NCBI GenBank assembly: GCA_963666565.1
Contig: OY762911.1
Coordinates: 1,951,497 to 2,015,496 of the forward strand
DNA: 64,000 bases
From: Thermoanaerobaculia bacterium
GTDB lineage: Bacteria > Acidobacteriota > Thermoanaerobaculia > Multivoradales > Multivoraceae
Direction: 5' to 3'
This document shows positions 10,042 through 58,173 of this stretch, in pieces. Numbering within the stretch: the stretch's first letter is position 1; each line of letters begins with the position of its first letter. The translations under genes were made by a program, and so were the position numbers. The notes beneath the pieces are model-generated. The model was not told where the DNA came from. It made no database searches and saw nothing but the letters and a program-made list of their open reading frames with translations.

Positions 10042-10065
10042 GCGGGTCGGAAGACCCGCGCACCC
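10042..10065. repeat. Solo REP unit (GCGGGTCGGAAGACCCGCGCACCC) between convergent genes
   Basis: Exact match to the right-TIR consensus of the MITE family. The unit is itself a 7-bp-stem hairpin. Confidence 0.8.
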
Positions 10066-10080
10066 GGCGCGGAGCGGCGG

Positions 10081-12360
10081 CTACGGCTGGATCAGGTAGG
10101 TGAACTTCACCGCGATCTGGCGGCGGGTGCTCGTCCGGTAGCGGAGGTCCTCGGCCATCCAGTTCTCGTTGTACACGACGAACAGGTCGGAGCCCGGTTT
10201 GTAGATCCAGTGCAGGCGGACGTTGGTTCCGAGGTCGCCGGAGAGATCGTTGTACTGGACGATCGTGTTCAGCCGCAGGTTCGGGTTGAACGTCAGGTTG
10301 ACGATCTGGCTGTAGAGGCCGACGTCGAAGGCGCCGGTCGGCAGCTCGACGTCGTTGAACACCCAGCGGGTTTCCGTCTGCAGGTTCTTCGAGAGGCGGA
10401 GGTTGAGGGAGAGGCGGCCCGAGGTCTGGGTGCCGTCGTAGAAGTCGCCGATGCCGAGGCGGCCGCGCACGCCAAGGAGACGGCTCTGGTTGCTGAACGT
10501 GGCGAGTTCGACGGTGTCGAACTCGTAGCGCCCCGGCGGGATCACGACGCCGGGCGACACCTCGAACGGCTCGACCAGGTTCTCCGTTTCGTTGACGTAA
10601 CCGATCCGCCAGCGGTCCTCGGTAGTCATCCTCATGCCGATGGGCGAGAACTCGATCCGGCGCGTCTCGAGTTCGCCTTCGTCCAGCGTCTCGTAGTAGT
10701 CGACGTTCAGTTCGGTGAACCAGGAGCGGACCAGGCCCCGTTCGATCCGGGGCAGCCACTGGATCATCGGGTTCAGGTGCCGGACGTTCCGGCGCAGGAG
10801 GAAGCCGGCCCTCGGGTCGTAGTCCCGCTCGATCTCCTGGGCGTCCAGGAACATGGTCAGGGTGCGGCCCTGGTAGTCGAAGTTCAGCCCGTAGGCGGAC
10901 TCGCCGGCGTCGGAGGGGTCGGCCGGCGCCGCGTCCCCGGAGTCCGCGGACGGTTCCTCGCCGATGCCGCTGCTGGACCAGAAGCCGCCGAAGATCGTCT
11001 TCGACGTCGGCTTGTAGACGAAGTCGACGCCGGCGACCCGGTTCGCGAGTTCGCCGTCCGGGGCCGCTTCGGTGAGCATCGCGCCGATCGACGAGCGCTC
11101 GCCGACGTTGCGCTTCAGGCGGGCGACGGTGAACGCGTTCGCGGGCAGCGTGCCGTCGGCCCGCTCCAGCCCGGCCGTGGCGACGCGCAGGACGCCGATG
11201 TCCCAGCCGCCCATCCGGCCGGTGAGGCGGGCGCCCCAGTCGATCGGGACCTGCCGGCCCGCGTCCAGGCCGACCCGCCGGGAGAAGAACGCCTTGAGCA
11301 CCGGCGGCTGGTAGAAGCGGCGGTGGGGCGGACCGAAGTCGAAGATGCCCGCGTTCTCCAGGAAGAAGTCGCGCTTCTCGGGGAAGTAGAGCGAGAACCG
11401 GGTCAGGTTCGTTTGCAACTCGTCGACCTCGACCTCGGCGAAGTCCGTGTTGTACGTCAGGTCGAGCGCCAGGGAACGCGTCACGCCCCACTTCAGGTCC
11501 AGGCCGAAGTCGCCGTCGGTGGCCGGGTCGAGGTCGAGGCGCGGGTCCTCGCTGACGTCGCCGATGGCGTACGGCTTGATCTGAAGTTGCGCCGACTGGC
11601 TGAGTCCGGTGAGCCCGGTCAGTTCGCCGGCCATGGACACCCGATGCACGGGCTGCACGTCGGAACCGACCTGACCGAGCACGCCGACTTCGCGGGGCAG
11701 GCCGGACCAGTGGGTCATCTCGCGCTTGTGGGCGATGTAGCGCTGGACGTTGAAGCCCCAGGCCGGCGCGGCCGGATCGAACCGGAGCGTGGAGATGGGA
11801 ATCGCGATCTCGGCGGTCCAGCCCGCCGCCGTCCTGCGGGACGCGACCGCCCAGATGCCGTCCCACTCGAGGTTCAGGTCGCGGCCTTCGTCGGTGACCA
11901 GGGTGTCGGTTCTTGCGCCGTTCAGGTTCGTCTCGAAGGCGTAGGCGTTGCGTCGATCATGGAAGGTGTCCAGCAACAGGATGATCGAGTCGTCCTGGAA
12001 GATGCGGCTGTCCCGCTCCATCTCCTTGGCGATGATCGCGTCGGGGTTCGCGTCGAAGGCGGCGATGCCGAAGTAGATGGTGCTGTCGGTGAACACGACC
12101 CGCACTTCCGTCTGCTCGGTCGCCGGCACGCCGTCGAGGGGCTCGTGCTGCATGAAGTCCGTGCCGACCTCGGACGCCTGCCAGGCCCGGTCGCTCAGGT
12201 CGCCGTCGACGGTCGGGGCCTGGTCCACGCGGGTGGCCGCCATGCTGGGACGCTCGGCTGCTGTTGCCGGCCGCTCCTGCCCCGCGAGCGGCGCGGCCGC
12301 CAGGAGCGCCAGCGTCACAGCCGTCCAGGTCGGCGCAACTGGTCTCTTCGGTGGCGACAC
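10081..12360 (-). CDS. DUF5916 family protein with an N-terminal carbohydrate-binding-module-9-like domain
   Basis: Signal peptide RPVAPTWTAVTLALLAAAPLAGQ. The CBM9-like region (VDGDLSDRAWQ...TDFMQHEP...VRVVFTDSTIYFGI...RNAYAFETN) is followed by a large beta-rich domain. The likely start is GTG at 12360; the track ORF is extended upstream to 12525. Confidence 0.65.
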   Translation of the reverse strand: MSPPKRPVAPTWTAVTLALLAAAPLAGQERPATAAERPSMAATRVDQAPTVDGDLSDRAWQASEVGTDFMQHEPLDGVPATEQTEVRVVFTDSTIYFGIAAFDANPDAIIAKEMERDSRIFQDDSIILLLDTFHDRRNAYAFETNLNGARTDTLVTDEGRDLNLEWDGIWAVASRRTAAGWTAEIAIPISTLRFDPAAPAWGFNVQRYIAHKREMTHWSGLPREVGVLGQVGSDVQPVHRVSMAGELTGLTGLSQSAQLQIKPYAIGDVSEDPRLDLDPATDGDFGLDLKWGVTRSLALDLTYNTDFAEVEVDELQTNLTRFSLYFPEKRDFFLENAGIFDFGPPHRRFYQPPVLKAFFSRRVGLDAGRQVPIDWGARLTGRMGGWDIGVLRVATAGLERADGTLPANAFTVARLKRNVGERSSIGAMLTEAAPDGELANRVAGVDFVYKPTSKTIFGGFWSSSGIGEEPSADSGDAAPADPSDAGESAYGLNFDYQGRTLTMFLDAQEIERDYDPRAGFLLRRNVRHLNPMIQWLPRIERGLVRSWFTELNVDYYETLDEGELETRRIEFSPIGMRMTTEDRWRIGYVNETENLVEPFEVSPGVVIPPGRYEFDTVELATFSNQSRLLGVRGRLGIGDFYDGTQTSGRLSLNLRLSKNLQTETRWVFNDVELPTGAFDVGLYSQIVNLTFNPNLRLNTIVQYNDLSGDLGTNVRLHWIYKPGSDLFVVYNENWMAEDLRYRTSTRRQIAVKFTYLIQP

Positions 12361-12523
12361 GGGCTCGGTACGCGGAGACGGGGTCGGCGGCGGTCGGCCG
12401 GACGTATGGGTTCGGCGGCTGCAGGGGCGCGTAGTTCGCGCCAGCGGGAACCGGCGCAGACTAGCAGGAGCGGACGGCGCCGAGCCGCAGCCGCGCGCGG
12501 TCTCTGCGGTAACGTCCGCCCCC

Positions 12524-14348: not shown

Positions 14349-14360
14349 TCCGCTTCCACT

Positions 14361-14547
14361 GGGTGCGCGGGTTTTCTGACCCGCTCTCGGGCGAAGCTGC
14401 GAAGCGGCGCAGTCCCGAGGACAGGGCCGCCGGCGGAAGGCCGGCGACCGCGCCAGACGGGGCGCCGGCCACGGCGGAGCCGGCTTGCGGCCGGCGCGTC
14501 CTTCTGGCCGCCTTCGGCGGCAGCGGGTCAGAAGACCCGCGCACCCG
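14361..14547. repeat. MITE/REP-like element, full copy (TIRs GGGTGCGCGGGTTTTCTGACCCGC and GCGGGTCAGAAGACCCGCGCACCC)
   Basis: Perfect 24-bp terminal inverted repeats flank about 140 bp of GC-rich internal sequence. It sits between convergent gene ends. Confidence 0.85.
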
Positions 14548-14558
14548 GTGCAGTGCCT

Positions 14559-16856: not shown

Positions 16857-16943
16857 GGCGGAACAGTAGCGGAGCCGAGACGCTGGCGCCTGCAGGCCAG
16901 GCGCTTGCAGGGAACTGGCCGCCAGAGGCGCCAGCCTTCCGCT

Positions 16944-17080
16944 GGGTGCGCGGGTCTTCCGACCCGCCCGCGGGCGAAGGCGCGGAGCGGCGCAGCCCGC
17001 GCAACAAGCCGCCGGCCAAAGGTCGGCGACGATTCCGCATGCCGCCTCCGGCGGCGGCGGGTCAAAGGGCCCGCGCAGCG
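16944..17080. repeat. MITE/REP-like element with a degenerate right TIR, in a divergent intergenic region
   Basis: The left TIR is exact (16944-16967). The right end, GCGGGTCAAAGGGCCCGCGCAGCG, is mutated. Confidence 0.7.
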
Positions 17081-17112
17081 GCAGGTTCCCTTGGTTCCGG
17101 TCCTGCGATACC

Positions 17113-18699: not shown

Positions 18700-18704
18700 C
18701 CGCC

Positions 18705-18898
18705 GGGTGCGCGGGTCTTCCGACCCGCATGTCGGTGCGCGGGTCTTCCGACCCGCATGTCGGTGCGCGGGTCTTCTGACCCGCTGCCGCCGCAGGCGGC
18801 GTCCAGCATCGTCGCCGGCCTCCGGCCGGCGGCCTTCTTGTCCGGGCTGCGCCGCTCCGCGGCTTCGCCCCCGAGCGGGTCGGAAGACCCGCGCACCC
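18705..18898. repeat. MITE/REP-like element with the left TIR tandemly triplicated
   Basis: Three left-TIR units at 18705, about 18734 and about 18763, then internal sequence, then the right TIR at 18875-18898. The internal sequence is nearly identical to the copy at 19552-19717. Confidence 0.85.
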
Positions 18899-18943
18899 AG
18901 TGCGCACCCAGCGGCGGCTAGGATTCGCCGCCGGAGGAATGCC

Positions 18944-19534: not shown

Positions 19535-19551
19535 CCGCCTCGCGCGCCACT

Positions 19552-19717
19552 GCGTGCGCGGGTCTTCCGACCCGCATGTCGGTGCGCGGGTCTTCTGACC
19601 CGCTGCCGCCGCAGGCGGCGTCCAGCATCGTCGGCGGCCTCCGGCCGGCGGCCTTCTTGTCCGGGCTGCGCCGCTCCGCGGCTTCGCCCCTGAGCGGGTC
19701 GGAAGACCCGCGCACCC
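19552..19717. repeat. MITE/REP-like element (two left TIR units plus right TIR), a near-identical twin of 18705-18898
   Basis: Same internal sequence (ctgccgccgcaggcggcgtccagcatcgtcg...ggcttcgcccc) and the same orientation as the copy upstream of the nitroreductase gene. Confidence 0.85.
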
Positions 19718-19746
19718 AGTGCGCACCCAGTAGCGCGCGAGACGGA

Positions 19747-24785: not shown

Positions 24786-24791
24786 GCCTCA

Positions 24792-28947: not shown

Positions 28948-29126
28948 GGGTGCGCGGGTCCTCCGACCCGCTCAGGGGCGAAGCCGCGGAGCGGCGATCC
29001 CGGACAACGAGGGCTCCTGCCCAGGTTCGGCGACGAAGGGGTGCGCGGGTCTTCCGACCCGCAACCGTCCCCGGAGCGGGTCGGAAGACCCGCGTACCCG
29101 GAGCGGGTCGGGAGACCCGCGCACCC
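28948..29126. repeat. Compound MITE/REP-like element (left TIR, 66-bp spacer, then a minimal left TIR-13 bp-right TIR hairpin, then an extra right TIR)
   Basis: TIR units at 28948-28971, 29039-29062, 29076-29099 and 29103-29126. Confidence 0.8.
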
Positions 29127-31919: not shown

Positions 31920-34900
31920 TCACGGCGCCCTCGCCTGATCGTACGCCCGCCTGAACACGACCTCGGACATCCACCGCTTGAAGCCGTCGTTGTCCATGAA
32001 CTGCTTGAACAGCTCAGTGTCGTCCTTCATCACGTTCTGCATCGCGCGGAGCAGGGCCCGGTCGTGCTCGATGCGGGTGTTCTCGCGGTCGGAGTTCCGG
32101 CGAGCGTTGCGAAAGGCCGCGTCGGAGGCGACCCTGGCGGGAATGTCGAACGCGATCATCCGCTGGACGCGGTCTTCGTCCGCCCAATCATCCGCTGGAC
32201 GCGGTCTTCGTCCGCCCATTCGATGCCGCCGAAGTGGTCGTTGAACGCCTTGACGATGTTCGAGAGGTGGTCCAGTTCGGGTTCCGGCCGGTGGCCGTCG
32301 CCGGCGGGGGGCGTCGGCTCGACCTCGGCGTCCTCGTCGGGCAGGAGGATCTTCCGGATCGCCTGTTTCTCGGCCCGGTAGCTGTCCATGTCGACCGCGT
32401 CGAGGATGCCTCGCGCGAGATCCTCCTCCCGCGGCGCCGGCAGCTTCGGGATCAGGAAGTTCAGGAAGATCGACCGCTTCTCCCAGCCGGCGTTCGAGAA
32501 CGGGAGGATGGAGGAGAGGAAGCCGTAGGCGCGCGCGAACGCCTTGGCCTTTCCCTTGAAGTCGACCTGCCCGTCCTCGTCGAGTTCGCTCAGGTAGACC
32601 GCGACGCACTCGTCGAGGATCGGGTCGAGCCGGTCGCGCTCGGCGCCGTCCAGATAGCGCTCGACGAACAGGTCGACCTGCTCCGCCGAACAGACCTGCG
32701 CCGCGTCGAGGCCAGCCTGCAGGTCGTGCAGCCGGTCGGGGTCCGGCTCGTCGGCCAGGATCGTGCCGCGGTAGTAGTTCGCGAACGAGTCGCGGATGAT
32801 CTCCGTGTCGTTCAGGAAGTCGAGCACGAACACGTCGTGCTTGCCGGGGTGCGCCCGGTTGAGCCGCGAGAGGGTCTGCACCGCCTTGATGCCGGCAAGC
32901 GTCTTGTCGACGTACATCGTGTGCAGCAGCGGTTCGTCGTAGCCGGTCTGGAACTTGTCGGCGCAGACCAGGAACCGGTAGGGGTGTTCCCGGATCTTCG
33001 TCGCGATCCGGCTGGACGGGAAGCCGTTGAGCGAGGCTTCCGTGACCCTCGCGCCGCCGTATTCGTGCTCGCCCGAGAAGGCGACGATCGCCCGGTACGG
33101 GCTCTTCCTCGCGTCCAGGCAGTCGCGGATGGCGTGGAAGTACTGGATCGCGCGCTGGACGCCGTTCGTGACCACCATGGCCCGCGCCTCGCCGCCGATC
33201 TTGCGCGGCGCGGCGACCCGGTCGTGGAAGTGGTCCGCCACGATCTCGGCCTTCAGCCGGATGGCGTGGTCGTGCCCCTCGACGAAGCGCCGCAGCTTCC
33301 GCTGCGCCTTCTTGACGTCGAACTCCGGGTCGTCCTCGACGCTCTTTGCGAGCCGGTAGTAGCTCCTGACCGGCGTGTAGTGCTTCAGCACGTCGAGAAT
33401 GAAGCCCTCCTCGATCGCCTGCTTCATCGAGTAGGTGTGGAAGGCGCGGCGCCTGACCGTGCCGTCGGGTTGCGGTTCGGGAACTCCGAAGAGCTCCAGC
33501 GTCTTGTTCTTGGGTGTTGCCGTGAACGCGAAGTAGCTGGCGTTCGACAGCATCTTGCGCGACTCCATCAGGCGGTTGATCCGGTCCTCGTAGGTCTCCT
33601 CCTCGCCGCGGGCGCCGGCTTCGGAGAGGGCGCCCGAGACCGCGGCGCTGGTCCGGCCGCCCTGGCTTGAGTGGGCCTCGTCGATGACGATCGCGAACCG
33701 GCGTCCGCGCTGCTCGTTGCCGATGGCGTCCAGGACGTGGGGGAACTTCTGGATCGTCGTGATGACGATCTTCTTGCCGCCTTCGAGGAACTGGCGGAGG
33801 TCCGCCGAGCGGTCGGCGTGGCCGACGGTGGCGCCGACCTGCGCGTACTGCCTGATCGTGGCGTGGATCTGGCGGTCGAGAATGACCCGGTCCGTGACGA
33901 CGACGATGGAGTCGAAGACCGTGCCGCCGCCGCTTCGTCCCTGGGAGTTCGGGTCGCCGCCGCGCCCGTCCGGCCCGCTCGGTCGATGGTCCTCGGCCTC
34001 TTCGGCGCGCGGCTCGACGTCGCGGTTGCCGCCGCGCCGCTCGAGCCCGATCAGCCGGTGGGCCAGCCAGGCGATCGAGTAGCTCTTGCCGCTGCCCGCC
34101 GAGTGCTGGATCAGGTAGCGCCGGCCCGCGCCGTGCTCGGCCGCGTCGGCCAGGAGCCGGCGGACCACGTCGAGCTGGTGGTAGCGCGGCCAGATCTGCG
34201 TCTTCTTCTTCCGGCCCGTCTTCTCGTCCTTCGATTCGACGATCTGGGCGTAGTTCTCGACGATCTCCGTCAGGCTCTCACGAGTCAGGACCTCGCGCCA
34301 CAGGTAGTCCGCGGCCAGACCGTCAGGGTTGGGCGGGTTGCCGGCGCCATCGTTCCAGCCCCGGTTGAAGGGCAGGAACCAGGACGCCTTGCCTCGCAGG
34401 TGGGTGCAGAAGCGCACCTCCCGCTCGTCCGCCGCGAAGTGGACGATGCAGCGGCCGAACTCGAACAGCTTCTCCCGCGGGTTGCGGTCCTTCCGGTACT
34501 GCTCGACGGCGTCGCTGACCGTCTGCTTGGTCAAGCTGTTCTTCAGTTCGAACGTGACGACCGGCAGGCCGTTGACGAACAGCGCCAGGTCGAGCGCCAG
34601 TTGAGCCCGGTCGCCGCTGTAGCGAAGCTGCCGCGTGACGGTGAAGCGGTTCAGCTCGAAGCGTTGCCGCGCGGCCTCGTTGCCCTCCGACGGCGTGCCG
34701 TAGAACAGCTCCAGATCGTGCGCGCCGTGCCCGATGCCGTTCCGCAGCACGTCGATGGTCCCGCGCTTCGCGATCTCGCCCTGCAACCGGGCGAGGAACT
34801 TCCGCCGCGCCGGCCCGTCCTCGTCCAGGGCCAGGCCGTCCGCGGCGTCGGGCTGCGTGGCTTGGAGGAAGGCCGAGAGCTGGGTGAAATCGACGCAGTA

Positions 34901-42550: not shown

Positions 42551-42903
42551 TCCTCGGACTGCTCGGCAGGTACCTTGGGTTCAATGGCTGGCTCGCTCTC
42601 GCCATGCCACCTTGTGCGTTCCATGAATCGGCGGAGGATGGGGTCCGTTGGGCGATAGTCCCGTATCCAGGCGTTGATCTCGCCGTTGGTCATGTCTTCG
42701 AACTTCCTGCTGAGGCGTTTCCGTTGCTCCCGCTCGTAGGCGACGCAGTCGAAGTCGTTCTCCTCTCTCTTGGCCGTCACTCCACCGGGGCCTTTCTGAC
42801 GCCCGAGTCCGCTACGAGGCGAAGCGGAAGGAGCTTGGCTCTCGGCGACCGCTCCCAGATACGACGGAGGATGGGGTCCGTGATCTCCCGGTTGTTCCTC
42901 CAC
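42547..42903 (-). pseudogene. Remnant of the PIN-gene 3' region (tail domain only), translationally coupled to hsdS
   Basis: ...FDCVAYEREQRKRLSRKFEDMTNGEINAWIRDYRPTDPILRRFMERT is homologous to the C-terminal tails of the PIN copies. Its stop overlaps the hsdS ATG. Confidence 0.35.
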
Positions 42904-43511
42904 TCCACCTGCTCCTCGGGAGTCATGGCTTCTAACTTCCGACTGATGCGGTCCCTCTGCTCGCGCACGAAGCCGACGCAGTCGAAGCTCTTGTCGTTCG
43001 GGTCGCGGAAGTTCTCGCCCAGGATGGCCGGAGGCTCGTACATCTTGATCCGGGGATGACCGAGTTCCCGGTTGACGGCGTCGAACTTGGGCCCGCGGCG
43101 GAAGTTCAGCAGGTGCTTGTAGTTCCAGCTCGCAAGCATGTCGACGTTTGCGAGCGTGGCGAAGGCGACGTGCAGGGCGGCGGGTCGCGCGGCCGGGTCC
43201 AACGCGCCCGCCTCGATGTAGCGGTCGGCGAGTTCCTCGGCTGCTCCCGACGGCTCCAGGAGCTCCGAGTGCTCCCGCGGCACCGTACCTAGCAGCGCTC
43301 TCGCGGCCTCGGTCGCCGCGTCCAACTCGCCCACGACCGCGGCCGACAGGACGAGGGTCATGTCGGCGGCACGGAACCCCTCGAACAGAGCCCGGGACGA
43401 CTCCCTGATCCAGTACTTCTCGTCCTCGCAGGCGGAGAACACGGAGGAGTCGACGTACACGCGGGGCGTTTCCGGCCAGGACGGAACCGGGTACGTCGTC
43501 TCAGCGGTCAT
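42777..43511 (-). CDS. PIN-domain nuclease-like protein with a C-terminal extension (distal copy C)
   Basis: PIN signature: N-terminal Asp (RVYVDSSVF), the acidic residues, and the C-terminal T/SxNxKH-type motif (NVDMLASWNYKHL). The ATG overlaps the stop of an hsdM C-terminal fragment. Confidence 0.6.
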   Translation of the reverse strand: MTAETTYPVPSWPETPRVYVDSSVFSACEDEKYWIRESSRALFEGFRAADMTLVLSAAVVGELDAATEAARALLGTVPREHSELLEPSGAAEELADRYIEAGALDPAARPAALHVAFATLANVDMLASWNYKHLLNFRRGPKFDAVNRELGHPRIKMYEPPAILGENFRDPNDKSFDCVGFVREQRDRISRKLEAMTPEEQVEWRNNREITDPILRRIWERSPRAKLLPLRLVADSGVRKAPVE

Positions 43512-43690
43512 CGTCCACCTCTTTCGACGGACCGGGCGCCATGCCGCCCATGATCTGGGCCAGCAGGCCGTCGGTCATCGTCTCCAGCGTCAGGCTGTCA
43601 GCCTGGAACTCCGCCAGCGGCCGCATGGGCTCGGGCCTGTAACAGTAGCGGTCGAAGCCGATCTCGTAGCGGGTCTTCATGGTGACTGGA
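43501..43690 (-). pseudogene. Duplicated hsdM 3' terminal fragment (encodes the last ~59 aa of HsdM)
   Basis: MKTRYEIGFDRYCYRPEPMRPLAEFQADSLTLETMTDGLLAQIMGGMAPGPSKEVDDDR aligns to the HsdM C-terminus (VKTSYEISFNRYFYKPEPMRPLAEIQADILALETQTEGLLAEIMGGMVPGPSKEVDDDR). Confidence 0.6.
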
Positions 43691-44130
43691 GTTGTACCAC
43701 GCATCGGCGGCTCAGGGCACCGCCTCGCGGCGCGGCAACGCCTTGATGCCGCCGTTCTTCGATCCCTGTCGCGGAGGTTCGCCGCGGTCTTGTTCGGCCG
43801 CGCCAGCAGGCGGCCCAGCGGTTCAGGCCGGGAGATCGTGATCCTCGGAGGGCGTGTCCTGCACGCTGGCATTGCGATCCCGCAGGCGCTCGACAAGACG
43901 CCGCAGCTTCGGGTCTGTCGGTAGGTAGTTGCGCATCCAGGCGCCTATCTCGTCGCTGCTCATGCCTTCGAGCTCCTTGCCGGCCGCGGCGATCACGGCC
44001 GCCGCAGCCAGCCTCAAAGCCTCGAACCGGCTCAAACCGTCTAGACACGCGCAACGGTCGCGGGCCTCGCCTTGCCGGCGACCGCCCGGCCAAGCACTGC
44101 GGCGAGGGACCGTGATCGCTCAGACAGTGG

Positions 44131-44475
44131 TTAGCGGAGATGCTCGCGCAGAGAAGCGCCGGGCTTCGGCCAGTCGTACCACGATTCCCAGAACACGCCC
44201 TTTGTCCCGCTTTCGCGTCGCGTACACCCAAAGTGCAGGCGGGTCCCCTCAAGGTATCCGCTGACGCGGTGCGGCTTGTCAGTAACGACGTCCAAGCCGA
44301 ACCCCGTCGCGCTCTCTATCCCCGCGAGACAGCTTGCGAGCGTCGCCCGCTCGGCACCCATTGTGATCGTTGACGACTCGCCGCCGCACGCGACGACCAC
44401 AGCGAAGCCGACGCTCACGACCGCTACTAGCGCCAAGCGGCGCACGTTCCCTAGCGCTTTCTCCATGAAAGCCAA
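44131..44475 (-). CDS. Small putative lipoprotein (114 aa) inserted within the degraded middle PIN copy
   Basis: Signal peptide with lipobox (LALVAVVSVGFAVVVACGG). The sequence is unrelated to the PIN module. Confidence 0.4.
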   Translation of the reverse strand: MAFMEKALGNVRRLALVAVVSVGFAVVVACGGESSTITMGAERATLASCLAGIESATGFGLDVVTDKPHRVSGYLEGTRLHFGCTRRESGTKGVFWESWYDWPKPGASLREHLR

Positions 44476-44987
44476 AGCGTATCACGCGGACCGCGACCGC
44501 GGCCGGGAGCTTCTTCCGCTGCTCGCGCTGGAAGGCGGCCTGCAAGGCGATGGGTCCCGTCGCCGCATCCACCGCGCTCCCTTCGACGTAGCGGTCGGCG
44601 AGTTCCTCGGCTGCTCGCGACGGTTCCAGCAACTCCGAGTGCTCCCGCGGCACTTTGTTTGGCAGGGCTCTCGCGGCCTCGGTCGCCGAGTCCAACTCGC
44701 CCGCGACCGCGGCCGACAGGACGAGGGTCACGTCGCCGGCACGGAAACCCCTCGAACAGAGCCCGGGACGACTCGCTGGTCCAGTACTTCTCGTCCTCGC
44801 AGGCGGAGAACACGGAGGAGTCGACGTACACGCGGGGCGTCTCCGGCCAAGACGGAACCGGGTACGTCGTCTCAGCGGTCATCGTCCGCCTCCTTCGACG
44901 GACCGGGCGCCATGCCGCCCATGATCTCCGCAGGCCCTCGGGCTGCGGCTCCAGGCTGTCAGCCTGGATCGCCGCCAGTGGCCGCAT
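44279..44987 (-). pseudogene. Degraded PIN-domain gene (middle copy B), frameshifted and with its central part replaced
   Basis: The N-terminus MTAETTYPVPSWPETPRVYVDSSVFSACEDEKYW (track ORF 44451..44987) goes out of frame. The middle (track ORF 44279..44731) matches the PIN central region (MTLVLSAAVAGELDSATEAARALP...), then diverges. Confidence 0.5.
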
Positions 44988-45176
44988 GGGCTCGGTTCTC
45001 TAGTAGCGGTTGAAGCTGATTTCGTAGCCGGTCGTCACGATCCTGGAGTTGTACCACGCGTCGGCGGCTCAGGGCACCACCTCGCGGCGCGGCAGGCCTT
45101 GCTGCCGCCGTTCTTGGATCCGTGTCACGAAGACTCGCCTCGACTCTGTTCGGCCGCCAGCAGGCGGCCCAGCGGT

Positions 45177-45902
45177 TCAGGCCGGGAGATCGTGATCCTG
45201 GGAGGGCGTGTCCTGCACGCTGGCATCGCGATCCCGCAGGCGCTCGACCAGGCGCCGCAGCTTCGGGTCTGTCGGTAGGTAGTTCCGCGTCCAGGCACCG
45301 ATCTCTTCGCTGGTCATGCCTTCGAACTCCTTGCCGAGCTTCTTCCGTTGCTCGCGCATGAAGCCGACGCAGTCGAAGCTCTTGTCATTCGGGTCGCGGA
45401 AGTTCTCGCCCAGGATGGCCGGAGGCTCGTACATCTTGATCCGGGGATGACCGAGTTCCCGGTTGACGGCGTTGAACCTGGGCCTGCGGTAGACGTTCAG
45501 GAGGTGCTTGTGGTTCCAACTCGCGAGTGTGTCGACGTTTGCGAGCGTGGCGAAGGCGACGTGCAGGGCGGCGGGTCGCGCGGCCGGGGCCACCGCGCCC
45601 GCTTCGATGTAGCGGTCGGCGAGTGCCTCGGCTGCTCGCGACGGTTCCAGAAACTCCGAGTGCTCCCGCGGCACCGTACCTGGCAGGGCTCTTGCGGCCT
45701 CGGTCGCCGAGTCCAACTCGCCCGCCACCGCGGCCGAGAGGACGAGGGTCATGTCGCCGGCACGGAACCGCTCGAACAGAGCGCGAGACGACTCCCTGAT
45801 CCAGTACTTCTCGTCCTCGCAGGCGGAGAACACGGAGGTGTCGACGTAGATGCGGGGTGTTTCCGGCCAGGGCGGTACCGGGTACGTCGTCTCAGCGGTC
45901 AT
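45177..45902 (-). CDS. PIN-domain nuclease-like protein with a C-terminal extension (proximal copy A, coupled to hsdM)
   Basis: The same PIN motifs as copy C (IYVDTSVF...NVDTLASWNHKHL), with a distinct C-terminal tail (...GAWTRNYLPTDPKLRRLVERLRDR). The ATG overlaps the hsdM stop. Confidence 0.65.
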   Translation of the reverse strand: MTAETTYPVPPWPETPRIYVDTSVFSACEDEKYWIRESSRALFERFRAGDMTLVLSAAVAGELDSATEAARALPGTVPREHSEFLEPSRAAEALADRYIEAGAVAPAARPAALHVAFATLANVDTLASWNHKHLLNVYRRPRFNAVNRELGHPRIKMYEPPAILGENFRDPNDKSFDCVGFMREQRKKLGKEFEGMTSEEIGAWTRNYLPTDPKLRRLVERLRDRDASVQDTPSQDHDLPA

Positions 45903-47910
45903 CGTCCACCTCCTTCGACGGACCGGGCACCATGCCGCCCATGATCTCGGCCAGCAGACCCTCGGTCTGCGTCTCCAGGGCCAGGATGTCGGCCTGGATC
46001 TCCGCCAGCGGCCGCATTGGCTCGGGCTTGTAGAAGTAGCGGTTGAAGCTGATCTCGTAGCTGGTCTTCACGGTTCTGGAGTTGTACCACGCATCCGGGG
46101 CCCAGGGCAGGACCTCGCGGCGCAGAAAGGCCTCGATGCCGCCGTCCTCCTGGAGCGGGATCTGCTCGGTGTCGCGGAGGCTCGTGTCCGGCTCGTACTC
46201 GACGACGGCGGTCCGGCCATCGACCTTCGCCTCGAACAGGCCGCGCAGCGGGTCGGCGGCGACGCCCCGCTTGTGGACCTTCCGGATCACCGGCGGCGCC
46301 TCTTCGCCCTCGCCGCGGACGCCAGTGGCCTTGAGTCCGCGGATCTCGGCGGCCTTGTAGGCGCGGCACCCGTCGATTCCCTCGATGCGGAGCGGCCGCT
46401 CGACGGTGACCTTCCAGTAGCCGAAGGCCTCGTTGTCGAAGACCTTGCTTTCCTCGGTCTCCTCGAAGGCGAGGAAGGCGTCGCAGATGCGGGCGATGTC
46501 CTCGTCGCCGAGTTCGCAGTTCTTCTTGCCGAGGTTCTTGCGCAGCGGCTGGAACCGCTTCGTGGCGTCGATGAGCTGCACCTTGCCCCGGCGGTGCTCC
46601 GGCTTGCGGTTCGTCAGCACCCAGACGTAGGTGGCGATGCCGGTGTTGTAGAACATGTTGAGCGGCAGGGCGACGATCGCCTCCAGCCAGTCGTTCTCGA
46701 CGATCCAGCGGCGGATGTTGCTCTCGCCCTGGCCGGCGTCGCCGGTGAAGAGGGAACTGCCGTTGTGGACCTCGGCGATCCGGCTGCCGAGCGGCGTGTT
46801 CCGCTTCATCTTGGCGAGCTTGTTGGCCAGGAAGAGCATCTGCCCGTCGCTGCTGCGGGTGACGAGGGAGAACTCCGGGTCGCCGCCGTGCTCGATCAGG
46901 AACCGCGGGTCGCGCATGTCCTTCTTGCCGCCCATGCGCGCGAGGTCCGTCTTCCAGCTCTTGCCGTAGGGCGGGTTGGAGAGCATGAAGTCGAACTCGC
47001 GGGCCGGGAAGGCGTCGTTCGAGAGCGTGGAGTGCTCCGGCCCGCCGACGATGTTGTCGGCGGCCGCTCCCTCGCCCTTGAGGAGAAGGTCGGCCTTGCA
47101 GATGGCGTAGGTCTCGGCGTTGATCTCCTGGCCGAAGAGGTGCGTGGAGACCTCCTTGCCGCGCTCGGCGGCGAGCGACTGGAGCACGTCCTCGGCCACG
47201 GTGAGGATGCCGCCGGTGCCGCAGGCGCCGTCGTAGAGGGTGTAGGTGGCGGACCGGAGTCGGTCGGCCACGGGCAGGAAGACGAGGTTCGCCATCAGCT
47301 TGACCGCGTCGCGCGGCGTGAAGTGCTCGCCGGCCTCCTCGTTGTTCTCCTCGTTGAAGCGGCGGATCAGTTCCTCGAAGATCGAGCCCATGCCGTGGTT
47401 GTCGAGGCCGGGGTGCTTCACGCCGCCGTCGCCGTCCGTCACCGGCTCGGGGCCCAGGTTGATGTCGGGCGAAGTCAGCTTCTCGATCAGCGTGCCGAGC
47501 GCGTCGGCCCGCGAGAGCCGCGGGATCTGGTTGCGGAACTCGAAGTTCTCGAGGATGTCCTGGACGTTCGGAGAGAAGCCGTCGAGCCACGCCTCGAAGT
47601 CGGCCCGGAGCCGCTGCCGGCCGGCGCGGGCGCGCAGGTCGCGCAGCGTGTAGCTGGACGTGTTGTAGAAGTCCTGCTTCGCCGCGTCCCGCAGGGTGGC
47701 GTCCTGGTCGACGATCTCGAGTTCGTCGAGAGTTGCCTTCACCTGCAGGACGTGCTGCTTGCGCGGCTCCAGCACCGCGTCGAGCCGCCGCAACAGGGTC
47801 ATCGGCAGGATGACGTCGCGGTACTTGCCGCGGACGTAGAGGTCGCGGAGGACGTCGTCGGCGATGCCCCAGATGTAGCCGGTGATCCAGCTCAGGGAGG
47901 CGTTGTCCAC
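45892..47910 (-). CDS. hsdM: Type I restriction-modification N6-adenine DNA methyltransferase subunit (HsdM)
   Basis: HsdM_N (IWGIADDVLRDLYV...DVILPMTLLRRLD), an AdoMet motif (YDGACGTGG) and the catalytic NPPY (LSNPPYG). Confidence 0.9.
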   Translation of the reverse strand: MDNASLSWITGYIWGIADDVLRDLYVRGKYRDVILPMTLLRRLDAVLEPRKQHVLQVKATLDELEIVDQDATLRDAAKQDFYNTSSYTLRDLRARAGRQRLRADFEAWLDGFSPNVQDILENFEFRNQIPRLSRADALGTLIEKLTSPDINLGPEPVTDGDGGVKHPGLDNHGMGSIFEELIRRFNEENNEEAGEHFTPRDAVKLMANLVFLPVADRLRSATYTLYDGACGTGGILTVAEDVLQSLAAERGKEVSTHLFGQEINAETYAICKADLLLKGEGAAADNIVGGPEHSTLSNDAFPAREFDFMLSNPPYGKSWKTDLARMGGKKDMRDPRFLIEHGGDPEFSLVTRSSDGQMLFLANKLAKMKRNTPLGSRIAEVHNGSSLFTGDAGQGESNIRRWIVENDWLEAIVALPLNMFYNTGIATYVWVLTNRKPEHRRGKVQLIDATKRFQPLRKNLGKKNCELGDEDIARICDAFLAFEETEESKVFDNEAFGYWKVTVERPLRIEGIDGCRAYKAAEIRGLKATGVRGEGEEAPPVIRKVHKRGVAADPLRGLFEAKVDGRTAVVEYEPDTSLRDTEQIPLQEDGGIEAFLRREVLPWAPDAWYNSRTVKTSYEISFNRYFYKPEPMRPLAEIQADILALETQTEGLLAEIMGGMVPGPSKEVDDDR

Positions 47911-49526: not shown

Positions 49527-49586
49527 GGAGATCCCCGGCGTCCTCTGGCTATCGCCAGGCCACGTCGACCGGCCAGGACGACGGGC

Positions 49587-51041: not shown

Positions 51042-51083
51042 GGTTGGGCTCCTTAGGCTGGCTGACTGGCTCGCCGCTTCGCG

Positions 51084-51262
51084 GCTTCGCGCTCGATGCG
51101 GGTCGGAAGACCCGCGCACCCGGTATTCGGCTTCGCGCTCGATGCGGGTCGGAAGACCCGCGCACCCGGTATTCGGCTTCGCGCTTGGTGCGGGTCGGAA
51201 GACCCGCGCACCCGGTATTCGGCTTCGCGCTTGGTGCGGGTCGGAAGACCCGCGCACCCAGC
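51084..51262. repeat. Tandem array of four 47-bp REP units (cggtattcggcttcgcgctYgRtgcgggtcggaagacccgcgcacc)
   Basis: Direct reading: four head-to-tail units, each containing the GCGGGTCGGAAGACCCGC hairpin, with essentially identical 23-bp linkers. Confidence 0.9.
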
Positions 51263-51331
51263 GGCCGGTGCACCGACAGTCGGGCGGGTTCTGGCTTGCC
51301 GTCTTGCCTCTGGTTTCTCCGGTGGAGTCTC

Positions 51332-53533: not shown

Positions 53534-53567
53534 GACTGGGACCGCGCCCCAACGTCGGCGATCTGCT

Positions 53568-53704
53568 GGGTGCGCGGGTCCTCTGACCCGCTGCCGCCGA
53601 AGGCGGCTTTCAAAGTGGTCGCCGGCCTTTGGCCGGCGGCTGTTCCGTTCGGTCGCCGTCGCTTCGCGCCGCCGCCCCGAGCGGGTCGGAAGACCCGCGC
53701 ACCC
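53568..53704. repeat. MITE/REP-like element, full copy (137 bp)
   Basis: Left TIR at 53568-53591 and right TIR at 53681-53704. Confidence 0.85.
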
Positions 53705-53715
53705 AGTGGGGAACT

Positions 53716-56414
53716 TCATCTGCCTTTGACCTCCATTCGCGCTGGCACCGGAACCGTAGTGTAGGCGGCGCGGACTTCCCGTTCGCCGGCCAGCCAGGAC
53801 GACGACGCGATCAGGATGTCGTAGTCGCCCGGTTCCACGGCGTCCGTCGCTTCGCAGGCGAGACGGAACGTGCCGTCGTCGTCGGGCTCGATTTCGGTGC
53901 TGTCGCAGACGACGCCGGTGGGCAGGGCGTCGGCGCGAAGTTCCACCGGTTGCCGGAAGCTCTCTTCCCGATGCAGGACGCCCTCGACGGCGCCCTTCCG
54001 GCCGGACCGAACGCTCGCCTTGCCGACTTCGATGCGGTAGCCCGCGACGATCTCGAGCGTCACGCCGGGCGTGTAGAGCCGCTCGGGGCGGCCGCCCACG
54101 GTGACCTCGCCGGTGAGCGTCACGGTGTAGCGGTCGAGTTGGGTGCCGTCGCTGCTGCGGATCAGCTTGCTGCCCTCGGGCTTGTTGTAGTCGGTCTTCT
54201 CGGTCGTCTCGACGCGGAACTCGCCCACGCCCACGCCGATCAGGGCAGTGACGACCGTGGGCGGCTTCACCGGGACGTCCTCGCCCGGCGGCGCCTCGAA
54301 CTTCCACCCGAAGTCGAACGGCATGCCCTTGACCAGCCGGACGGTCTCCGGCGGCGTGCCGATCAGGCGCGGCCCGGCACGCCCGGTGAGCAGCACCGGC
54401 AGGCGGGTCTCCAGCCAGGGGGCGTTGAACGACCGCTCGGCCTCCGTCGTGTAGCTGCGGCCGTCGCCGGCGCGCACGCTGGTCACGCTTCCCGGCACGG
54501 TCGCCCGGCGGCGGATCACGGTGCCGTCCTCAAGCACGCCTTCGCCCCAGATCTCCAGGTCGAAGCGCTGGCGCTGAGCGTCGCGGTCGGCAGTGACCAG
54601 AATCCGGCCCGAGCGCGCCAGCGTGCGCGTGTCGAGGTCGCGCACCTCGCTGGTGATCCAGCCGGCCCGAGCCTCGATGCCGGGGGGCGGTCCCTCGACG
54701 TAGAGGCGGATCGGACCGAGATAGCCGCGGCGCACCGCGCCGACCTCGATCGGCTTCGAGGCGCCGTTGTTCAGAGTGAGTTGCGCCGTGCTCAGGCGCA
54801 ACGCGAAGTCGGGGCCGTTCGGGCTGGCCGTCAGCCGGTAGCCGAAGCGCGGCCCGCCGCGCCCGACGAGATCCTCGACCGTCACGTGCAGTTCGCCCAC
54901 CCCTTCCGGCGCCTCGACGAGGACCCAGGGGTCGAAGGACGTGGCCGTCGGCGACAGCAGCCGGAACGTGTCGGGGTCCGGGATGTCGTCGCCGGAAGAG
55001 GCCAGATACTCGCCGTCCGGGGTCGTGACGGTCAGCACGCCGAACAGGTCGGACGCGCCGAGCGCCGTTCCCTCGACCTCGATCAGCAGCCGCCGGCCCG
55101 GCTCGGCGGCGAGCCGGTAGCGGTCCACTTCGCCGGCCTGGTCGATCCGCCCGTTGACGACGACCGGCGCGGTCAGGGCCCTGGCCGGGTCGGCGTCGCG
55201 TTCGCGGACTTCCGGGAGATCGCCGACCACGATGGGGAAGGGCAGGGCGGAACTCCTGGCGGCCGCGCCGGCCGCCGGCCCGACGACGTCGAAACGGGTC
55301 GCCGTGGACGCCGTGTGATGCACTTTCCGTGTCGCCGTGGATGCGGTGTGGCTCACCGTCCGGCCAGCCGTCGCGGTGGCGCCCGCGCTCGTCCCGCGGT
55401 CGCCCGTCACCCCTGCGGTGCCAGTAGAGAACTCCGCCGCCTGCGCCGCCCCTTCTCTGGGTGCGCGGACCTTCTGGTCCGCATCAGGCGCGATGCCGCG
55501 AAGCGGCGAGCCCGAATCTCCGGCCGCGACGGTGCCGCCCGACAGCTCGAACCGCGTCTCCTCGCCGCGGCGCACGCCGAGCGGGAAGATCGCGTCGGCG
55601 TAGTCGTAGTCCGCGGCCGCGATCAGCTTGAGACGGTAGAAGTTCCGCCGCTGGTCGCTGAACCGGGCGTCGTGGGCCTCGACGACGTACTCGCCGGCCT
55701 TGGCCGGTTTCCAGTCGAGGCGGGCATCGACGTCGATGCCGCGCCCCTCCTGGTTGAAGGCGAGCTCCCGGCCGTCGCCGTCGAGCAGCCGGAGCGCCGG
55801 ATCGATCGCCGAGCCGACGCGCCGGGCCTCGACCTCCAGGACGATCCGCTCGCCCGCACGCGCCTGGAACCGGTATCGGTCGCGCTCGGCGCCGTCCAGC
55901 GTGCCATTGACCACGACCGGCAGCGCATCGATTCGCGGCGCGCCAAGGGCGCCGCCCGCGGCCCGCTCGAACGCTGCGCGGGCGTTAGCGCCCGTGGCTG
56001 GCTCGAACGCGGCGCGAGCGTTATCGCCGGCGGCTGGCTCGAACGCGGCGCGAGCGCTATCGCCCGCGGCTGGCCGGGACGTGCCGGCGCCGCCGGCACG
56101 CAGGTCGCGCTCGGCGACCTCGGGCACCGTGTCCACCCGGAACAGCAGCGCGTTCGACAGGCCGTCGCCGCTCGTGGCGCGCAGCGGGTAGAGGCCCGGC
56201 GCCGCGTCCGCGTCGATCTCCACCAGGAAGACGGCCGCCTGGAGGTTGCGGTCGTTCGGCCGCCGCTGCTTCTGCAGCCGGTCCTCGTCGGCGGCCTCGC
56301 CGAGCCGGGCGAAGGAGCCCGGCAGCGTGCTCTCGATCTCCAGATCGCCCGCGACGCCGTAGCCCTCGACGACGAGCCGCAAGGCCCGCCCCTGCTGGCC
56401 GCCGTGCGGATGCA
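53716..56414 (-). CDS. Large secreted repeat protein with pre-peptidase C-terminal (PPC)-like domains (Planctomycete-type)
   Basis: Repeated VVNG(T/R)ID...(D/E)RDRYRF motifs typical of PPC / bacterial pre-peptidase domains. Carries an internal 36-bp x3 tandem repeat (AAGDSARAAFEP). The start is ambiguous: ATG at 56414 (MHPHGG), or an upstream ATG at 56709 that reads through the MITE. Confidence 0.55.
55964..56072. repeat. 36-bp x3 in-frame tandem repeat inside the PPC-domain CDS
   Basis: gctcgaacgcggcgcgagcg.tatcgcc.gcggctg occurs three times and encodes a 12-aa unit. Confidence 0.75.
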
Positions 56415-56484
56415 TGTCGACGAGATTCGGCGGCGGCGCCGCGGCAGCGGCCGTGGCGGCGGCCAGGATGCCGACGAGCGCGCT

Positions 56485-56669
56485 GGGTGCGCGGGTCTTC
56501 CGACCCGCTGCCGCCGAAGGCGGCCAGGCAAACGTGCCGGCTGGAGGCCGCCGCCGCCGTGGCCGGCGCTCCGTTTGGCGCGATCGCCGGCCTGTGGCCG
56601 GCGGCCCTGTCGTTCGGGCTGCGTCGCTCCGCTGCTCCGCCCGCGGGCGGGTCGGAAGACCCGCGCACC
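56485..56669. repeat. MITE/REP-like element, full copy (185 bp)
   Basis: Left TIR at 56485-56508 and right TIR at 56646-56669. Confidence 0.85.
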
Positions 56670-56705
56670 CAGCGGACGGCCGGATCCATGCGAGCCCATT
56701 GCCGT

Positions 56706-58139
56706 TCACGGCGCGCCTCCGGCGGTCGTCGCTCCCTCGGCTGATCCCTCAAGTGGCACCGGCACGAACTCGTGCAGCAGTTCGCCGTCGGCGGCGCGGT
56801 AGAGCCTCAAACGACCGTCGAAGCCGGCGGTCGCCAGTTCGGCGCCGGTCGGGTCGAAGGCCATCGTGTAGATGCCGGCGTTGTGGCCGGAGGCGGTCGC
56901 GGTCCGCTCGCCGGTTTCCAGGTCGTAGATCGGCACCGCCTGCGCGGCGCCGCCGACCGCGAGCCGCTCGCCGCGCGGGTCCACCGCGAGCGCGAAGATC
57001 TCCCCGTCCTGGCGTTCGAACTCCCGGACCAGGGTCGAGTCGTCGGCGATCAGCATCTTCCGGGCGCGGTCCATCCGGTAGTAGTACGGCACGCGGTCCT
57101 CGCCGCCGATGACGACCGCCTCGATCCGCGGGTTCCGAACGACCGCCGCCAGTTCGCCGCGCAGCAGGTTGATGTTCTCGATGAAGGCGCCGCTCGACGC
57201 GTCGATCAGCTTGGCCGCCCGGTCCCGGCCGACGGACACGATCCGCCGTCCGTCGCCGCCGAAGACGACCCCGAGCACCCAGTTCTCGTGGTGGTTCATC
57301 CGCAGCAACTCGCGGCCGCTGGTCGCCTGGTGGATGCGCACCGTGTGGTCGGCGCAGCCGATCGCGAGCCGGCGCTCGTCCGGCGACACGGCGAGCCCGA
57401 ACAGCGTGTCGTGGCAGAGCATGTTCGAGACGCGGAGCTTCCGGTCCTCGACATCCCAGATCTGGATCTCGCCGAACCGGGCGGGCGTCCCGCCGGTGGC
57501 GATCAGCCGCCCGCTCCTGAGGAAAGCCAGTCCCTGGATCCGTTCCGAGACGCTGCCGAAGCGGGCCTCCAGGCTGTCGCCGCCGCCGATCTTCGAGCGG
57601 CGATGGAGCAGCACCTCCCGGTTTCCCGACGCGGCCAGCCACTCGCCGTCGGCCGAGTAGGCCACCGCCGTGATCACCGGCGGCTGGCGGTAGACGATCG
57701 GCCCCGTCGCCGCGCCGAGCCGCGTTTCCTCGGGCGTGTCGTCCGCTGCTCCGGCCGCGATCCAGTCGCCGATGGCCGCGATCTCGGCCTCGGCGAGCGG
57801 TTCCGCCCGCATCGGCATCGCGGGCTCGATCTCTCCCCGGAGCATCCGGAGCATCCTGCTCTCGTCCGGCTTGCCGGCCACGAAGGCGGGGCCGCTCATG
57901 CCGCCGGCGGCGAGTCCTTCGAAGCTGGTCAGGTTGAGCTCGCCGCCGAGCTGCGCCGGCTGGTGGCAGCCCTGGCACCGTTGCTGGATGACGGGCCAGA
58001 CGTCTCGGTAGTAGCTGGGAGCTTCGTCGTCGGTCTGAGCGGCGGCTGGAATCGCCGCGGCCAACAGTGCGGCCGCCAAGCCGAGACGGACGCGTGCCGC
58101 TCGAGCGGTCGTCGGCACCGGCTCGCCGCTTCTCGGCAT
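56706..58139 (-). CDS. Planctomycete cytochrome-c (PSCyt1) domain plus WD40-repeat protein
   Basis: Signal peptide, then YYRDVWPVIQQRCQGCH (PSCyt1 CxxCH), followed by WD40-like repeats. ATG at 58139. Confidence 0.65.
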   Translation of the reverse strand: MPRSGEPVPTTARAARVRLGLAAALLAAAIPAAAQTDDEAPSYYRDVWPVIQQRCQGCHQPAQLGGELNLTSFEGLAAGGMSGPAFVAGKPDESRMLRMLRGEIEPAMPMRAEPLAEAEIAAIGDWIAAGAADDTPEETRLGAATGPIVYRQPPVITAVAYSADGEWLAASGNREVLLHRRSKIGGGDSLEARFGSVSERIQGLAFLRSGRLIATGGTPARFGEIQIWDVEDRKLRVSNMLCHDTLFGLAVSPDERRLAIGCADHTVRIHQATSGRELLRMNHHENWVLGVVFGGDGRRIVSVGRDRAAKLIDASSGAFIENINLLRGELAAVVRNPRIEAVVIGGEDRVPYYYRMDRARKMLIADDSTLVREFERQDGEIFALAVDPRGERLAVGGAAQAVPIYDLETGERTATASGHNAGIYTMAFDPTGAELATAGFDGRLRLYRAADGELLHEFVPVPLEGSAEGATTAGGAP

Positions 58140-58149
58140 CGCGCTCGAT

Positions 58150-58173
58150 GCGGGTCGGAAGACCCGCGCACCC
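58150..58173. repeat. Solo REP unit (same unit as in the 51084 array, with the gcgctcgatg leader)
   Basis: Exact GCGGGTCGGAAGACCCGCGCACCC sequence. Confidence 0.8.

Follow-up and report, generated by a model that had tools for sequence, protein, structure and literature searches.

Palindromic repeats of a Thermoanaerobaculia genome as probable units of a REP-RAYT system in uncultured Acidobacteriota

Introduction

Repetitive extragenic palindromic sequences (REPs) and their REP-associated tyrosine transposases (RAYTs) are best characterised in Proteobacteria, as in the REPs, bacterial interspersed mosaic elements (BIMEs) and TnpAREP (RayT/YafM) of E. coli, a system termed the 'REPtron'. Inverted REP doublets that replicate as units, or REPINs (REP doublets forming hairpins), have been tied to RAYT Groups 2 and 3 only, and the hosts named in that literature are gammaproteobacterial species and Neisseria (bioRxiv 10.1101/2021.07.10.451892). 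The Y1 systems reported so far from acidobacteria are of other kinds, namely the 'TIRYT' genes, Y1 transposases with long terminal inverted repeats (TIRs) (PMC3733652), and the class 3 TnpAY1 proteins, with a CnGA foot and about 600 copies in Solibacter usitatus (PMC6006769). Here we analyse a stretch of 64,000 nucleotides (the window) from a Thermoanaerobaculia bacterium (assembly GCA_963666565.1, contig OY762911.1, positions 1,951,497 to 2,015,496), in which an initial annotation had described a dispersed family of elements resembling REPs or miniature inverted-repeat transposable elements (MITEs) at 11 loci. Our results indicate that these elements are very probably REPs, mostly arranged as REPIN-like inverted doublets, of a REP-RAYT system in an uncultured Acidobacteriota lineage.

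Results

A family of foot-bearing hairpins and inverted doublets

The 24-mer GGGTGCGCGGGTCTTCCGACCCGC matches the window 25 times at up to three mismatches, against 0.00 matches expected from 100 shuffles, and a bare hairpin pattern matches it 29 times, against 3.3 ± 1.9 in shuffled sequence. Each of the 11 hairpin loci listed by the initial annotation was recovered at its position, as were the variants it had described: solo units, a triple REP, a miniature hairpin in which a REP and an inverted REP (iREP) are separated by 13 nt, and a four-unit array. The REP unit consists of an unpaired 5' foot, CTGGGTGC, followed by a perfect 7-bp stem (GCGGGTC/GACCCGC) closed by a 4-nt loop (TTCC, TTCT or CTCT). 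Inverted pairs of this unit enclose a core of about 90 nt, conserved and asymmetric and with three hairpins, giving a composite of about 138 bp; a 186-bp subfamily, found at 14.4 and 56.5 kb, carries one extra hairpin. Hairpin 2 of the core reads GCCGCC-GMA-GGCGGC, the central hairpin is CGCCGGCC-N3-GGCCGGCG followed by a T-rich stretch, and hairpin 4 is a nested hairpin. The inverted repeat extends beyond 24 bp, to about 26-28 nt (CTGGGTGC...GCACCCAG). Full copies had been described as bounded by perfect inverted repeats, and the inverted arms are present, but not every arm is perfect: those of the copy at 14361/14523 carry two mismatches and one, the right arm at 17057-17080 is degenerate (GCGGGTCAAAGGGCCCGCGCAGC), and the copy at 24617 has a 23-bp tandem repeat in place of a right arm.

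The unit extends well beyond this genome. A scan with the pattern GGTGCGCGGGTCYTCYGACCCGC, using one genome per species, returned at least 97 stretches, with 19 assemblies among the matches listed, all of them metagenome-assembled genomes (MAGs) titled Acidobacteria/Acidobacteriota, Thermoanaerobaculia, Holophagales or Candidatus Multivorans, so that the REP unit of the window is common to at least 19 species-level Acidobacteriota genomes. The window together with loci fetched from such genomes (numbered with the prefix L) contains 194 units of the window type, among which we counted 25 inverted pairs, 18 of them spanning 130-139 nt between pattern ends. Aligned composites from 10 genomes have a mean column identity of 85%, and between genomes the REP arms are nearly invariant, with a mean identity of about 75% in the core.

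Several measurements show that the hairpins themselves are conserved. Folded as single-stranded DNA, the composite reaches -59.8 kcal/mol, compared with -38.0 ± 2.9 kcal/mol for shuffled sequence (z = -7.5). Under a model of local hairpins, 95.8% of the positions modelled as paired are paired across 21 composites, both REP helices are 100% paired, with three compensatory positions in each, and 11 compensatory pairs occur, compared with 3.0 ± 1.3 in shuffled alignments (none of 500 shuffles reached 11). A search with the foot CTGGGTGC alone found 247 sites in the window and loci, 171 of which are followed by a perfect 7-bp/4-nt hairpin; these 171 hairpins fall into five stem types, and every difference between types is compensatory. 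The GGTGC foot is common to all five types, and the full CTGGGTGC is kept in four. Immediately 5' of the foot stands a nearly invariant CT dinucleotide. The C|T sites cleaved by E. coli TnpAREP (PMC3333891) come to mind, a resemblance that we mention as a likeness and not as evidence.

RNAalifold, applied to the composites, prefers a long-range stem between the left and right REPs. One locus bears directly on this alternative. At 4761-4902 of L043 lies a heterotypic doublet with a normal core, in which the left stem is GCGGGTC and the right stem GCCGGCC and each arm is a perfect hairpin. We rejected a long stem joining the two REPs as the selected structure, and because these arms mismatch each other while each remains locally perfect, we regard the local hairpins as the conserved feature.

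RAYT genes flanked by their own REP types

In the fetched loci, which amount to about 0.9 Mb, the only type of gene found between such units encodes a Y1 HuH RAYT rather than a DDE transposase. A tblastn search with an approximate E. coli YafM sequence pointed to a single locus, L012, and served as a lead only; the identification rests on comparisons with Pfam, NCBIfam and the PDB. The L012 protein (205 aa) matches Pfam Y1_Tnp and scores 84.2 bits against NCBIfam REP_Tyr_transpos, above the curated cut-off of 80, and it has 4005 homologues at E <= 1e-10, several of which were named 'REP element-mobilizing transposase RayT' by JGI. Scores of the RAYT clade as a whole straddle that cut-off, ranging from 76.7 to 89.5 bits, with P0083 (89.5) and P0021 (82.6) also above it and P0020 (79.1), P0024 (77.6) and P0027 (76.7) just under it; on the same proteins the IS200 model gives 20-32 bits where it matches at all, against a cut-off of 55. 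The HuH (here HVH) and Y---NP motifs of the RAYTs align to those of E. coli TnpAREP (PDB 4ER8).

The flanking arrangement is clearest in L098, where full composites of the window type flank the gene for RAYT P0025 (4001-4606), one at 3795-3938 and the other at 4641-4782, the upstream one containing the exact 24-mer. In L012 composites likewise lie on both sides, with a core of the window type and the stem GCCGGCC. Window-type REPs or composites stand upstream of the RAYT gene in L052 and L100, in which the gene reaches the end of the locus or contig downstream. The RAYT gene adjoins ilvD in L012, L098 and L100. The RAYTs and the stem or stem-loop of the REPs that flank them are as follows.

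P0025 and P0027: stem GCGGGTC (the window type)
P0020 and P0024: stem-loop GCGGACC-TTCT
P0021: stem-loop GCCGACG / GCCGGCG-TCCC
RAYT of L012: stem-loop GCCGGCC-TTCT
P0083: stem-loop GCCGGCC-TCCA

The RAYTs thus form five clades, each with its own stem: GCGGGTC, GCGGACC, GCCGRCG, and GCCGGCC with two different loops. Identity between RAYTs is 79-87% within one stem type and 51-67% between types. A single genome can hold more than one pair, since GCA_002238985.1 (L113/L114 and L117/L118) encodes both P0021 and P0024, which are 64% identical and are each flanked by their own REP type.

We also noted rearrangements near RAYT genes. Among the P0083 loci, which come from different assemblies of one species, the gene coordinates of L107 and L108-L110 imply two indels, one of 37 bp on the upstream side of the RAYT gene and one of 26 bp on its downstream side; they fall in tandem REP-like repeats, which suggests a copy-number polymorphism. 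Between L002 (6000-8000) and L052 (6255-7777), which derive from two species and share 93-97% nucleotide identity, REPINs are kept at orthologous sites, and the breakpoints of an inversion coincide with the REPINs that adjoin the RAYT gene.

Insertions dated against close relatives

One relative (L101/L102/L104) is collinear with the window from 10.0 to 28.7 kb at 88-92% nucleotide identity, with an alignment that breaks exactly at the element loci, and a second (L121), at 80-87% identity, has no REP in 13 kb. At three junctions, between the SSF symporter and nitroreductase genes, between the nitroreductase and TrkH genes, and at 24.6 kb, L101 and L121 both have a short spacer, and the window is longer there by 176-244 bases. 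Because both relatives lack them, the copies at 18.7, 19.6 and 24.6 kb are derived insertions. None of the three, resolved against the empty sites in L101 and L121, shows a target-site duplication (TSD). The insert at 18.7 kb begins with GGGTGC and ends with CACCCAG, that is, exactly at the feet, and the spacer downstream of it is ancestral, since it is present in L121.

These junctions, together with the identity of the flanked genes, speak to the proposal in the initial annotation that the units are MITEs. A classical MITE would be an internally deleted derivative of a DDE-type insertion sequence (IS) that is moved in trans by way of its terminal inverted repeats and produces TSDs; composites of defined length with inverted ends of 26-28 nt, present in one relative and absent from another, look much like such an element. 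The insertions left no TSD, though, and the supposed TIRs are hairpins in their own right, found also as solo units, in tandem and in heterotypic pairs; the compensatory changes in their stems point to recognition of structure rather than of duplex ends, and the genes flanked by such units in the fetched loci encode Y1 HuH RAYTs rather than DDE enzymes. The MITE reading is largely refuted by these observations, and we give it very little credence. A lack of TSDs was among the findings that the initial annotation itself had named as weakening this reading.

The same comparison bears on whether the window holds a decaying REP population, in a genome that would lack an active transposase and in which relics of past spread would now change through slippage, deletion and recombination alone. 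Truncated or degenerate copies at 16944, 24617 and 28948, arrays that resemble slippage products, and the absence of a RAYT gene from the window are what such decay would leave. Against this, the TTCC loop, a minority variant that is rare in other genomes, is shared by 15 of the window's 22 perfect units, the copies at 18.7 and 19.6 kb are 98% identical over 182 bp, and at least three insertions postdate the divergence from the relative at about 90% nucleotide identity. The shared loop and the near-identical copies argue for recent spread within this lineage, and with the young insertions they argue for recent proliferation, so that we hold the decay reading to be highly improbable, in favour of a REP population that has been mobile in the recent past.

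At two other junctions the window and its relative carry different stem types. The units of the window at 10042-10067 and 14359-14548 have the stem GCGGGTC, and their counterparts in L101, at 215-240 and 6675-6770, have GCCGGCG (loop TCCC/GGGA). At 10042 the units of the two genomes, about 90% identical in nucleotide sequence, share leader and position; at 14.4 kb the core in L101 is opposite in orientation and truncated, and the outgroup L121 has no REP. The difference in stem type may reflect either repeated insertion at a hot spot or replacement in place. A further observation concerns a gene of 277 aa that lies between the DPP-IV and SSF genes in L101 (9016-9980) and L121 (5063-5896) and is missing from the window (16874-17107), where the site is occupied by a REPIN whose right arm is degenerate.

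Inventory of copies and their gene context

The copies in the window are listed below with their coordinates, strand (where one is assigned) and setting.

10042-10067, minus strand: solo REP with its foot on the minus strand; flanked by the convergent 3' end of a DUF5916 gene and, upstream, by an unidentified region that is PhyH-like in the relative
14359-14548, no strand: long 186-bp composite of REP, core with extra hairpin, and iREP, core in '-' orientation; between the convergent ends of a 175-aa open reading frame (ORF; plus) and the DPP-IV peptidase gene (minus)
16942-17080, no strand: composite with degenerate right arm; divergent region between the DPP-IV (minus) and SSF symporter (plus) genes
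18705-18909, no strand: three tandem REPs (28-bp period, 18705-18784), core, iREP and a duplicated partial foot; between the SSF (plus) and nitroreductase (plus) genes; absent from L101 and L121
19550-19728, no strand: two REPs, core, iREP and partial foot; between the convergent ends of the nitroreductase (plus) and TrkH (minus) genes; absent from L101 and L121
24615-24790, plus strand: left REP with hairpin 2, followed by a 23-bp tandem repeat in 4.6 copies, without right arm; absent from L101 and L121
28946-29128, no strand: REP with partial core, then REP-13 nt-iREP (29039-29099) and one more iREP; between the convergent ends of an SDR gene (plus) and an unknown gene (minus)
51082-51261, minus strand: four tandem 46-bp units (array at 51082-51259), each an iREP with the 3' half of core hairpin 4; between the stop of a PSCyt2/PSD1 gene and the start of a DUF1501 gene, both on the minus strand
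53566-53706, no strand: canonical 137-bp composite, REP-core-iREP; between tandem minus-strand genes
55458-55515, plus strand: solo REP of a sister subfamily, CTGGGTGC-GCGGACC-TTCT-GGTCCGC, with leader; in frame within the minus-strand gene 53719-56481
56483-56672, no strand: long 186-bp composite of the subfamily of the 14.4-kb copy; between tandem minus-strand genes
58134-58175, minus strand: solo iREP with leader GCGCTCGAT; between a DUF1501 stop and a PSCyt1-WD40 start

The statement that all copies are intergenic held for the 11 loci, as judged from Pfam-supported gene models and the annotation of the syntenic relative. The further unit of the sister subfamily, at 55460-55482, which the initial annotation had not listed, lies inside a gene: it is read as ...ADQKVRAPR... 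in a variable inter-domain linker, and homologues of the product (about 800-854 aa; P0241 is 83% identical) cover both sides of the REP site. Its REP type is the one that also flanks RAYTs P0020 and P0024. A CRISPR-like reading of the array of four 46-bp units was discarded, as its 'spacers' are identical to one another.

Copies lie at convergent gene ends at 10.0, 14.4, 19.6 and 29.0 kb, in a divergent region at 17.0 kb, and between co-directional genes at 18.7, 51.1, 53.6, 56.6 and 58.2 kb. Placement of this kind had led to the suggestion that the units act as terminators, and more broadly they might be host regulatory structures (terminators, mRNA stabilisers or protein-binding sites) that selection maintains, that spread by recombination and that are associated with RAYTs only incidentally. 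Beyond their positions at 3' ends and between co-directional genes, this idea can draw on the conservation of the core across species with its hairpin pairing kept, on the T-rich tail that the central hairpin has in one orientation, and on the roles of this kind reported for REPs of other bacteria (PMC3333891, PMC3733652). Yet close relatives lack copies at the same gene junctions, where the units must therefore be dispensable, and core orientation (five '+' against three '-', with '+' copies among minus-strand genes) is inconsistent with gene direction. A terminator role of the REP arms did not hold up: no T-run follows them, and terminator-like matches between 10 and 30 kb are not enriched (seven, against 6.0 ± 2.6 in shuffled sequence). 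Only the central hairpin of the core gives a terminator-like score, at two sites (18811-18833 and 19628-19651) and in one orientation. Rfam 15 has no match in the window at gathering score and nothing at E <= 1, the best sub-threshold match reaching 20 bits against a gathering score of 69.1. An incidental association would, moreover, leave the match between RAYT clades and stem types hard to account for. We accordingly give regulatory structures only a small probability as the explanation of the family; secondary use of the central hairpin is possible, and a primary role as terminator or RNA is unlikely.

Host lineage and neighbouring genes

The window is syntenic with contigs of 'Acidobacteria bacterium' MAGs at 80-92% nucleotide identity; megablast and blastn comparisons with the 97 pattern-matched loci produced nothing long, and the gene matches that they did give were distant, at 65-70%. 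Pfam supports flanking genes for DUF5916, a metallo-beta-lactamase/alkyl-sulfatase, a DPP-IV peptidase, an SSF symporter, a nitroreductase, TrkH, a PQQ dehydrogenase, an SDR protein, two PSCyt/PSD1 + DUF1501 pairs and a PSCyt1-WD40 protein, which agrees with the earlier remark that elements lie near PSD1 and DUF1501 genes. The host is a member of the Acidobacteriota despite these Planctomycete-style gene families. No tRNA or tmRNA gene was found in the window, whose G+C content varies between 63 and 75%.

Other repeats are present. Three direct repeats of about 1.0-1.4 kb, 86-97% identical, occupy 42600-46150 and adjoin a gene for HsdM, the type I restriction-modification methylase (45895-47910, minus strand), within a stretch of lower G+C content at 36-46 kb (63-67%, compared with 70-75%); one possibility is that they represent tandem hsdS paralogues on an island. 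Further tandem repeats, with no relation to the REP family, occur at 88-278 (39 bp x 4.9), at 32155-32218 (32 bp x 2.0, 100% identical) and at 55953-56074 (36 bp x 3.4), the last inside the gene that bears the in-frame REP.

Discussion

Our findings support the assignment of this family to the REP/REPIN-RAYT systems because its features occur in combination: a hairpin with an unpaired foot, inverted doublets, RAYT genes flanked by REPs, probably a RAYT for each REP type, and insertion that leaves no TSD. The initial annotation had named a REP/REPtron-type system as its fallback, and this fallback is the interpretation that now finds support; its broader picture of mobile palindromic units dispersed as a family also holds. 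Systems of REPs and RAYTs are well known, and what is well supported here is a reassignment from 'MITE-like' to REP/REPIN that does not overturn current understanding.

Several observations weigh against this assignment. The 64-kb window itself yielded no RAYT gene, the cognate enzyme being seen in other genomes only, and P0025, the closest RAYT of the window type, reaches 79.6 bits, slightly below the 80-bit cut-off. The foot reads GTGC where the canonical REP foot is GT[AG]G; degenerate feet such as GTGG are reported in some REP families (PMC3733652, PMC6006769). Finally, the insert at 19.6 kb carries on each side an additional palindromic flank of about 16 nt, at 19535-19551 and 19729-19744, which both relatives lack, and the two flanks are mutually complementary (CCGCCTCGCGCGCCACT / TAGCGCGCGAGACGGA), so the mobile unit is not always bounded by the feet.

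Drawing on what is described for E. coli TnpAREP and the IS200/IS605 transposases, we propose that each REP, when in single-stranded DNA, would fold into its 7-bp/4-nt hairpin with the 5' foot CTGGGTGC left unpaired, and that a cognate single-domain HuH/Y1 transposase, the RAYT, would recognise foot and hairpin together. The enzyme would cut beside the foot or hairpin and rejoin the strands, and doublets or pieces of them would thereby be copied to new intergenic sites without TSDs; tandem arrays and solo units would then arise secondarily, via slippage, partial deletion or recombination. Catalysis by the RAYT and the single-stranded intermediate are both posited by analogy with these characterised enzymes, and we infer that a cognate RAYT is present in the source genome.

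A REPIN-like system in uncultured Acidobacteriota widens the known range of REP-RAYT systems, and it has unusual features: a foot other than GTAG, a structured and asymmetric core, and co-diversified pairs of RAYT and stem, two of which occur in one genome. Such pairs offer a natural set of enzyme-hairpin combinations for the study of DNA recognition by HuH proteins. The units also have practical consequences, as they create long false ORFs, probably break assemblies in MAGs of this lineage, and mark sites of gene loss and inversion. A more adventurous idea, which we consider doubtful but worth stating, is that the lineage holds a 'specificity series' of at least five RAYT paralogue clades, sharing the GGTGC foot and each having its own 7-bp stem, in which new REP types may overwrite resident REPs. 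The notion of overwriting stems from the differing stem types of the window and its relative at the 10042 and 14361 junctions. If it were true, existing REPs would be preferred targets or would be converted in place, a new mode of REP turnover, and the series would be a ready-made system for learning how HuH enzymes read hairpins.

Comparison with described systems places the family most naturally among REPs. Correia elements of Neisseria and bacterial MITEs are similar in size (100-190 bp), in their inverted ends, in their location between genes and in a presence that varies between strains, but they make TSDs and derive from DDE-type IS, and neither sign was seen here at the three resolved insertions or in the fetched loci. 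The acidobacterial TIRYT and class 3 TnpAY1 systems share the phylum and pair Y1 HuH proteins with repeated flanking structures; the RAYTs described here differ from class 3 TnpAY1 in having Y---NP, the class 2 signature, instead of Y----Q, and a GTGC instead of a CnGA foot, and from both in being flanked by strong, perfect hairpins rather than by long TIRs or weak structures. The REPs of Stenotrophomonas and Marinomonas come nearer, with perfectly palindromic stems, complementary stem changes between subfamilies and a foot that is kept (PMC8266576; for GTAG families, PMC3733652), and differ in their foot, their phylum and the shorter core of their doublets.

With the E. coli REPtron the family shares a hairpin with an unpaired 5' foot and inverted REP pairs joined by a linker (PMC3333891, PMC3479197, PMC8266576), a transposase gene flanked by its own REPs and encoding HuH and Y---NP motifs, and intergenic copies, tandem clusters and the absence of TSDs. 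It departs from the REPtron in its foot, CTGGGTGC (GTGC) as opposed to GTAG; in its stem, a perfect 7-bp palindrome where the E. coli enzyme needs a bulge; in its core of about 90 nt with three hairpins, compared with the short L and S linkers of E. coli; in its RAYT, which has an N-terminal extension of about 90 aa relative to E. coli TnpAREP and weak sequence similarity to it (E = 0.005); and in its host phylum, the Acidobacteriota. From the REPIN-RAYT systems of Pseudomonas and Neisseria described by Bertels and Rainey it is likewise set apart by its phylum, by its asymmetric structured core and by the one heterotypic doublet. As in those systems (PMC3116915, PMC5581495, bioRxiv 10.1101/2021.07.10.451892), an inverted REP doublet would be the replicating unit, a genome may hold several REP types, and close species keep REPINs at orthologous sites; the single RAYT for each REP type and the stable neighbourhood of the RAYT gene that mark those systems may also apply here, where the gene adjoins ilvD in three loci.

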